Assembly: GCF_003334815.1 (NCBI RefSeq)
Contig: NZ_QOWO01000053.1
Source: Escherichia coli
Lineage (GTDB): Bacteria > Pseudomonadota > Gammaproteobacteria > Enterobacterales > Enterobacteriaceae
Strand: one strand, 5' to 3'
Length of the DNA stretch: 19,069 bases
This document shows, piece by piece, positions 18,001 to 19,069 of this stretch; the stretch's first letter is position 1; each line of letters opens with the position of its first letter. The position numbers are program-made.

Positions 18001-19069
18001 AGCAGCAGAAACGACTGCGTGAAAGTGAAATCCGCCAGCAGCTCATTCGGGAAGGTGTTCTGCGTGAGGATGAAGATATCTCCGTACATGCGGCCAGAAA
18101 ACGCTGGTATCTGCAGCGCAGTCAGGATGCGCTGAAACACCGTCGTGCGAAAGCAGCAGCCAGTAAGCGCGCCAGACGCCTGAAGAAACTGCCTGCCGAC
18201 CAGCAGATTCATGAGATGGCAGAGTATCTCAGGAAGCGTCTGCCTCCGGATGAAGCCTATTTTTGTTCCGATGACCATCTGAAGCGAATGGCCATCAGGG
18301 AGTTGCGTCAGCTTGAACTGACGCTGGCTGCCCCGCCACCGCACTAGACAGCACCATTCCCTCAGCACTGAATCATCACCAGCCCCTCCGGGGCTTTCGG
18401 CGCTGGTTCCGCTCAGCCCAAAATCCGCAGTAATCACCTTAAATCCCCTCAGAGGGGCATATCTGCCCATAAAACCACGCATCAGTCATCAGAACATGGC
18501 CACGTCGTTTCAGTTATCCACATAAATCCGCAAACAAAGGACTTTAAGAAGCTGCAAACCTGAAACAGCAAACCTGCAATATAGTCTTAACCCCATTACT
18601 TAATCCCCTGCGTTGCTTCGCCGCAGGGAAAGTCTTTATCTCTGAAACCACTGTGAACAAATACAAAGAGGCCTTCGCTTGCAGCGGCCAAGGCCGCGCC
18701 GCTCAGAATCTAAAAGCACCTCCCACGCTGACGCGCGGGCCCCGAACCTCACCGTTCTGAAACCACAACAAAAAAACATCAGGAATAAAAACACCACACA
18801 AACGCAGCACCGTGCCCACCCCTCATAACTGAAAAGCGAGGCCGCCCCCGCCCAAAGGGCGGGAACAACATCGCTTTTAATTATGAATGTTGTAACTACA
18901 TCTCATCATGGCTGTCAGTGTTCTGGCTGGAAGTATCGAGTACACGCTCGTAAGCGGCCCTGACGGCCCGCTAACGCGGAGATACGCCCCGGCTTCGGGT
19001 AAACCCTCGTCGGGACCACTCCGACCGCGCACAGAAACTCTCTCATGGCTGAAAGCGGGTATGGTCTGG

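Follow-up and report, generated by a model that had tools for sequence, protein, structure and literature searches.

What is the non-coding DNA that follows the initiator gene repZ in this segment, and does a plasmid begin its own replication there? The segment (the window throughout) is a stretch of 19,069 nucleotides from Escherichia coli (contig NZ_QOWO01000053.1 of assembly GCF_003334815.1), and repZ stops at position 18347, close to its far end. A first-pass annotation had read 18348-18800 as the cis-acting element CIS followed by the probable origin of an I-complex plasmid. Our analysis leads to the same reading: this region is very probably the CIS together with the vegetative origin (ori, or oriV) of an IncI1-type, I-complex replicon, as supported by the initiator family, the regulatory pseudoknot of the repZ leader (PK-repZ), and the identity to the IncI1 plasmids ColIb-P9 and R64. 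The elements, their order, spacing, and conservation, and the identity to ColIb-P9 and R64 were computed directly here; protein binding, termination, cis-action, strand opening, and priming are inferred from earlier work. The region is a textbook IncI1 CIS-ori and, with a sequence identical to many database entries, is already known. No new biology comes from annotating it, and the points that it adds are minor ones: the conservation of a spacer length, a mismatch over the third iteron, a shared cassette, and a missing inverted Ter site. In E. coli and Salmonella, plasmids of the IncI1 type are major carriers of resistance genes, including those for extended-spectrum beta-lactamases; the CIS-ori module is what enables them to replicate.

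The first part of the answer lies directly upstream, where a RepZ/RepA-type initiator is expressed through repY and a pseudoknot, as in the I-complex:

17155-17303, + strand: repZ leader with the regulatory pseudoknot PK-repZ (Rfam RF01087, 194.5 bits, full-length match)
17239-17328: repY leader open reading frame (ORF) of 29 codons, overlapping the repZ start and the PK-repZ leader (ORF listing)
17316-18347, + strand: repZ (repA), initiator of 343 amino acids; start codon GTG, stop codon TAG (18345-18347) (ORF listing)

The PK-repZ leader serves as context that marks the replicon type. The 343-amino-acid RepZ matches the NCBIfam family NF040977 (RepA_IncFII_LM) at 316 bits and is 94.5% identical to the RepA accession carried by both ColIb-P9 and R64, and GTGGCAGGTCTGAAG opens the window repZ as well as the R64 repZ sequence (PMC6361801, Table S1). 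Its coordinates agree with those of the annotated repA of an identical plasmid, pUMNK88_91. From 18348 to 18900 the nucleotide identity to many sequenced IncI-type plasmids is 100%, and in pUMNK88_91, which is one of them, the counterpart is unannotated intergenic DNA after repA. The first-pass annotation had named alignment with ColIb-P9 as a check on its reading; aligned over 18300-18900, ColIb-P9 (NC_002122) and R64 (NC_005014) are both about 96-97% identical to the window, with no insertion or deletion in the CIS or ori, so that nucleotide homology extends to characterised members of the I-complex. The remaining window is standard IncI1 backbone (pilV to pilI, traC, a NusG-like traB, and traA), and the whole is an IncI1 backbone segment comprising pil/shufflon, traABC, and inc-repY-repZ-CIS-ori-ter. 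The MOB-suite cluster of the 100%-identical plasmids is "IncI-gamma/K1" and not "IncI1/B/O", the incompatibility group itself being set by the Inc RNA. An origin of the iteron-controlled class (F, P1, pSC101, RK2), which has a Rep_3/RepE-type initiator and handcuffing, was considered and rejected, since the initiator here is RepA_IncFII_LM and control is of the antisense-RNA/pseudoknot type; the three short boxes described below are named "iterons" in PMC6361801.

Between the repZ stop and the origin proper lies the CIS, with a hairpin near its rep end and a spacer beyond:

18348-18513, + strand: CIS, the non-coding spacer from the repZ stop to the DnaA box (166 bp counted)
18382-18397 with TTT, + strand: CIS hairpin GCCCC-TCC-GGGGC (18382-18394) followed by TTTC, found in the minimum free energy and centroid folds
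18395-18513, + strand: rep-distal CIS spacer of 119 bp, conserved in length and not in sequence
18514-18522, + strand: DnaA box TTATCCACA, perfect consensus, left edge of the ori, sole perfect copy in the window

The interval of exactly 166 bp that had been claimed from the repZ stop to the DnaA box is confirmed by the count (the TAG ends at 18347 and TTATCCACA starts at 18514), and the terminator-like hairpin said to lie within it is there. The CIS of ColIb-P9 and that of R64 are likewise 166 bp long and 94-96% identical to the CIS of the window, 166 bp being reportedly also the published length of the ColIb-P9 CIS. The CIS is reportedly required in cis for the replication of both ColIb-P9 and the IncB plasmid pMU720 (Mori 1995; Praszkier and Pittard 1999).

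To place these elements in a wider family, relatives were sampled down the tblastn ranking to RepZ (99% to 34% identity) and down the DNA matches, and the DNA downstream of rep was compared. The table of lengths and hairpins covers 19 replicons, the scan for initiator boxes 14 replicons outside the IncI1 set, and the origin alignment 14; pMU720 was compared through its reported features and through relatives of the IncI1/B/O cluster. The interval from stop to DnaA box, or its equivalent, measures 150-175 bp in the 19 replicons and in nearly all of the wider sample. IncFII has 175 bp, IncL/M 155 bp, and pYV 150 bp, and most replicons of the I type, the Klebsiella type, and allied types, IncK2/Z among them, have 160-169 bp. 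In each of the 19 tabulated replicons a GC hairpin followed by a T-rich tail begins 23-37 nt past the stop. Its stem reads GCCCC...GGGGC in the I-type and Klebsiella-type replicons and CCGCC...GGCGG in IncL/M, pYV, pCf4085, and a Pantoea plasmid, and the structure thus persists across a switch of stem sequence. On the strength of this conservation, and not of any terminator scan, we retain the hairpin as an element of the CIS and regard it as a putative intrinsic terminator of the repZ transcript.

As a separate observation, an ORF of 197 amino acids runs antisense to the 3' half of repZ (17889-18482, - strand) and extends 135 bp into the CIS. We rejected it as a gene: none of the identical plasmids has it annotated, and a shadow ORF is the likeliest explanation.

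Could the 166 bp be a mere 3' untranslated region of repZ with its terminator, with no role in the origin and of constant length through recent ancestry? Identity among the window, ColIb-P9, R64, and further plasmids of the IncI1 type is 94-100% here, so that the length they share is uninformative on its own, and the CIS hairpin is thermodynamically ordinary. The wider sample speaks differently. The distance that separates the hairpin's last G-C pair from the position of the DnaA box is 117-119 bp in 17 of the 19 replicons:

119 bp: 6 IncI1/I-gamma-type replicons
118 bp: 8 replicons (IncI2, Salmonella, three Klebsiella types, pKP49, E. mori, and pCf4085)
117 bp: 3 replicons (Cronobacter, IncL, and IncM)
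107 bp: pYV
127 bp: the Pantoea plasmid

This distance is held even where the identity of the spacer to that of the window drops to 0.54-0.63, which is the level of the shuffled baseline (0.59 +/- 0.02), and the two exceptions are off by about 10 bp, roughly one helical turn, whereas neutral drift should spread the lengths. An untranslated region without an origin role is on these grounds very improbable. The pattern is suggestive of a constraint on length or helical phase, judged from sequence comparison, and the distal half of the CIS is reported (Praszkier and Pittard 1999) to be a spacer that sets the helical phase of terminator versus ori.

The origin proper opens at the DnaA box and continues with a cluster of short repeats and an AT-rich site:

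18525-18533, + strand: predicted initiator (RepZ/RepA) box 1, AATCCGCAA, at +11 from the start of the DnaA box; Iteron-1 of R64 (PMC6361801, Table S1)
18549-18557, + strand: predicted initiator box 2, AAGCTGCAA, at +35; Iteron-2 of R64 (PMC6361801, Table S1)
18563-18571, + strand: extra copy AAACAGCAA, at +49; Iteron-3 of R64 (PMC6361801, Table S1), not conserved in relatives
18571-18579, + strand: predicted initiator box 3, AACCTGCAA, at +57; the third real box by conservation
18585-18590, + strand: TCTTAA hexamer at +71, surrounded by DNA of about 40% G+C; the initiator is predicted to open the strands here
18652-18660, - strand: degenerate inverted DnaA box TTGTTCACA with 2 mismatches; candidate only

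The DnaA box is, as had been proposed, perfect, and it is the sole perfect copy on either strand of the window, where about 0.15 would be expected by chance (simple arithmetic). At the homologous position the box is perfect in 12 of the 19 replicons and has one mismatch in 5; it is perfect in IncK2/Z and IncFII as well. The short direct repeats noticed earlier downstream of the box are present in two overlapping forms, as four copies of AANCNGCAA within 55 bp (starting at 18525, 18549, 18563, and 18571) and as a 14-nt tandem direct repeat GAAGCTGCAAACCT / GAAACAGCAAACCT at 18548-18575, returned by a repeat finder. Which of the four copies matter is indicated by the pattern of conservation. At +11 to +14, (T/C)CCGCAA is retained in all I-type and IncL/M relatives, with CCGCAA fixed at +14. 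Of the 14 relatives outside the IncI1 set that were scanned, 12 have a match to AANCNGCAA at an offset of +56 to +58 relative to the DnaA box. The copy at +49 is degenerate in pTW10598, a 55-kb IncI1 plasmid, IncI2, and the Klebsiella types. From this pattern we take +11, +35, and +57 to be the functional boxes, in agreement with the three RepA boxes reportedly footprinted in pMU720. According to Zhang et al. (PMC6361801), repeats that putatively bind RepZ lie 176-301 bp past repZ; those of R64 are given as AATCCGCAAAC, AAGCTGCAAAC, and AAACAGCAAAC, all three of which occur in the window. The tabulated third "iteron", AAACAGCAAAC at +49, may not be the functional repeat, the conservation pointing to AACCTGCAA at +57 instead.

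The same geometry holds at far greater distance. The offsets of +11, +35, and +57 for the boxes and +71 for TCTTAA are shared by ColIb-P9 and R64 and are fixed in IncI2, Klebsiella, Salmonella, and IncL/M replicons, where RepA is only 41-74% identical. TCTTA is nearly invariant across the 14 aligned origins, and G+C is lowest at 18520-18600. At the level of sequence, then, the region has the order expected of an I-complex origin: a DnaA box, three repeats, and an AT-rich opening site. A role of the TCTTAA site in opening is reported for pMU720 (Betteridge et al. 2004). In relatives an inverted DnaA box recurs at offsets of about +297 to +306, counted from the rep stop; it is perfect in IncI2 and Cronobacter and has 1 mismatch in K. 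oxytoca and pKP49.

DnaA boxes also serve as transcriptional operators, and mutation of the oriR DnaA box of mini-R1 raised copy number (PMC5883639), so one might take the box and its repeats for a regulatory site, used in autoregulation or titration by DnaA and RepZ, with the true origin elsewhere on the plasmid. A promoter scan of 18348-19069, however, returned no promoter-like site, and no downstream gene is placed for such regulation. In each member of the family that was examined, the initiator gene is also followed immediately by the array of DnaA box, initiator boxes, and TCTTAA, and the IncI literature puts oriV here (PMC6361801; PMC10286972), the latter with RepA binding downstream at oriV. 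We consider a purely regulatory site scarcely credible.

How far, then, does the module extend? The end at 18800 given in the first-pass annotation was arbitrary: the start stands, directly after the stop at 18347, but conserved elements run to the end of the window, and the functional module reaches past 18800, to at least 18902. Beyond TCTTAA the features are (the three hairpin entries and the last block without assigned strand):

18606-18612 and 18622-18628: inverted repeat with arms CCCTGCG and CGCAGGG, separated by 9 nt of variable sequence (fold -13.3 kcal/mol, z = -2.7)
18670-18695 and 18722-18739: GC-rich hairpins, inverted repeats of ordinary fold energy versus shuffles
18832-18878: very stable hairpin with U-rich tails on both strands (-24.6 kcal/mol on the + strand, z = -4.5; -34.9 kcal/mol on the - strand, z = -6.2)
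18880-18902, + strand: predicted Tus-binding Ter site ATTATGAATGTTGTAACTACATC, zero mismatches to GNRNGTTGTAACKA
18903-19069: conserved block beyond Ter, cut by the window end, about 90% identical in IncI1, IncI2, IncK2/Z, and IncFII

The GC-rich hairpins announced for this part are thus found at four places, 18606-18628, 18670-18695, 18722-18739, and 18832-18878. In the first, 85.7% of cells are paired over 14 replicons against 37-46% in slid controls, and 3 pairs have changed on both sides across them. The last, directly before the Ter site, receives a terminator-like call on the - strand (18869-18841), is conserved in IncI2, IncK2/Z, and IncFII, and looks like a bidirectional terminator from its sequence; the terminator scan also marked a site on the - strand at 18739-18722. 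Over 18340-18860 the GC skew is negative and the AT skew positive, which we leave uninterpreted because over 500 bp skew reflects motif content.

Such hairpins could instead be the terminators of a small protein gene or small RNA gene encoded in 18600-18880, a reading for which there are ORFs of 31-53 amino acids on both strands and the two - strand hairpins with T tails (18869-18841 and 18739-18722). It had been claimed that no ORF lies downstream, and this is borne out: all ORFs of the CIS-ori region are of at most 53 amino acids, the three longest have no NCBIfam match, and the identical plasmids have no coding sequence annotated there, nor do thousands of identical or similar ones. An Rfam search of the CIS-ori region gave no match even at E<=1, and the promoter scan likewise came back empty. 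A better reading of the - strand hairpins is that they are barriers to transcription entering the ori from downstream genes on the - strand. Part of 18600-18880 may hold an undescribed RNA, but a gene as the explanation of this part of the region is highly improbable.

The Ter core GAATGTTGTAACTA at 18885-18898 matches perfectly, and the window has no other site of this kind. The critical G-C(6) pair falls at 18885 and has its C on the - strand, so that the predicted Ter would arrest forks heading to higher coordinates, away from repZ, by the mechanism described in PMC10331603. Most relatives likewise have a + oriented Ter, at +491 to +618 counted from the rep stop, and "ter" is listed after oriV for IncI plasmids (PMC6361801). 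IncFII and several I-like hybrid replicons have a further Ter in inverted orientation at +420 to +424; it occurs in L007 (an IncFII plasmid, at 1256-1278), L004, L008, L009, and L015, and none was found in the window, or in ColIb-P9 and R64 within the stretch scanned. In R1 the minimal origin is separated from the start of the leading strand by two ter sites (PMC10331603), and the second stops the fork after one round (PMC10331603; PMC4999828). A paired fork trap of this IncFII (R1) type, with two opposed Ter sites, was rejected for the window, ColIb-P9, and R64, all of which have the + Ter only, and the IncI1 lineage may have lost one of the two. At the offset of the inverted Ter (18760-18800) the window is A-rich by eye.

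The hairpin, the Ter, and the next ~170 bp (18830-19069) are about 90% identical among IncI1, IncI2, IncK2/Z, and IncFII, the initiators and origins being far more divergent, and thousands of IncF plasmids match the query only in this hairpin-Ter-downstream part. The block with its hairpin, Ter, and presumed priming site looks like a cassette shared or exchanged between IncF and IncI replicons. By analogy, 18903-19069 is probably a primase-dependent leading-strand start (G site), truncated by the window end; folding of it as single-stranded DNA, on either strand, gave nothing distinctive.

How would these elements act together? RepZ would be made from the repY-repZ mRNA under the control of the antisense Inc RNA, and transcription would end at the hairpin in the first third of the CIS, so that none reads through into the ori. 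Termination at the CIS would keep fresh RepZ beside its own template, which would account for cis-action, and the other 119 bp would act as a spacer of fixed length that sets the distance and helical face of the ori from the terminator. DnaA would then occupy the perfect box at 18514 and RepZ the three AANCNGCAA boxes (+11, +35, and +57), and together they would open the duplex at TCTTAA and the AT-rich stretch, at about 18580-18605, for the loading of DnaB. The leading strand probably begins at a primase site downstream of Ter, as in R1. Replication would be unidirectional, with Tus bound to Ter at 18880-18902 stopping the returning fork after one round.

Several points weigh against the reading of the region as CIS and origin, or against parts of it. 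It draws on sequence comparison, and the published figure of 166 bp, the three RepA boxes, the opening at TCTTAA, and the model of spacer and phase are all as reported in earlier work. A strict consensus scan for terminators made no call at the hairpin of 18382-18397, the T run being only 3 long, and its folding energy is ordinary against shuffles (z = -0.5 to -1.1); with a short tail, a missed call, and a fold at the level of shuffles, its strength as a terminator leans on conservation and on reported work with pMU720 and ColIb-P9. The assignment of a G site beyond 18902 is by analogy only. The spacing pattern is only suggestive because the sample is small and the 19 replicons, which share ancestry, are not phylogenetically independent, and the off-mode distances of 107 and 127 bp are a single case each.

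Comparison with known systems places the window closest to ColIb-P9 and R64, where the gene order and the interval from stop to DnaA box are the same and the elements of the window all recur: the hairpin, the DnaA box, the three repeats, the TCTTAA hexamer, the Ter site, and the block beyond it. They differ by about 20 point differences over 600 bp and by the divergence in RepZ given above. pMU720 (IncB) is reported, in the work of Praszkier and Pittard and of Betteridge et al., to have a CIS of 166 bp with a rep-proximal terminator and a distal helical-phase spacer, then a DnaA box and, after it, three RepA boxes with the motif AANCNGCAA; the part that RepA opens reportedly contains a TCTTAA that is essential. 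At the level of sequence the window has all of these features, the terminator as a putative one.

IncL/M plasmids (pMU604 and the pOXA-48 type) keep the architecture of the window at greater distance, with a hairpin and T run past the repA stop, 116-117 bp to a 9-mer resembling a DnaA box, TCCGCAA at +14, AAGCTGCAA at +57, and TCTTAA at +71. They differ in a RepA that is 41% identical, in the CCGCC...GGCGG stem, and in one mismatch in the DnaA box, and no Ter site was found within the flank retrieved.

R1 and R100 (IncFII) have an initiator of the homologous family (NF040977 covers IncFII and L/M), and the IncFII plasmid examined has a perfect DnaA box at a distance of 175 bp from the repA stop. 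Identity to the window is about 90% across the stable hairpin, the + oriented Ter, and the block downstream. In contrast to the window, the IncFII oriR is without AANCNGCAA boxes and TCTTAA, its CIS has no detectable similarity to the window CIS, a second, inverted Ter stands at +420, and the control region is CopA/CopB/tap in place of Inc/repY. To judge from the title of Masai and Arai (1988) as cited in PMC3495755, R1 RepA is mainly cis-acting, a terminator is needed for cis-action, and the IncFII CIS terminator is rho-dependent.

The length of the spacer without its sequence is the one point that goes slightly past textbook knowledge. We entertain tentatively, leaning slightly against it, the possibility that throughout the RepA_IncFII_LM family the distance from hairpin to DnaA box is quantised in helical turns (about 107, 117-119, and 127 bp), with the sequence free to drift. 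If so, the transcription or termination complex at the rep end and the initiator complex at the ori must face each other on the helix, and this facing would be a general physical basis for cis-action. Mutagenesis in one IncB plasmid reportedly showed the phasing of the spacer, and a family-wide pattern would extend that result; if a full survey bore it out, the helical-phase model of cis-acting initiators would gain support at the level of sequence. A pattern scan of 298 Gb of genome contigs with TTATCCACANNNNNCCGCAA (15 specified bases) found, among the matches listed and screened, none with a downstream box and TCTTAA; the matches listed came from unrelated phyla, 15 bases being too few for 298 Gb. 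A scan of viral contigs with the RepA alignment found one distant locus at 24% identity, which was left unused.

Three observations concern other parts of the window and sample. A predicted C4 antisense RNA (Rfam RF01695, of the P1/P7 phage immunity type; 77.5 bits, full length) lies at 16214-16301 on the - strand, directly upstream of the traA ORF (15874-16182) on the same strand, traA being a regulator of IncI1 conjugation. The best-matching plasmids align with the window only from position 180 on, and the first 180 bases, in a region annotated as shufflon/pilV end, are probably a different shufflon arrangement. Finally, three of the sampled replicons, L004 (pTW10598_61), L009, and L012, are mosaics that join a control region of the IncFII type, with a copB-like "replication regulatory protein RepA" and a tap leader, to RepA, CIS, and ori of the I-complex type, and their CIS-ori is 77-86% identical to that of the window.

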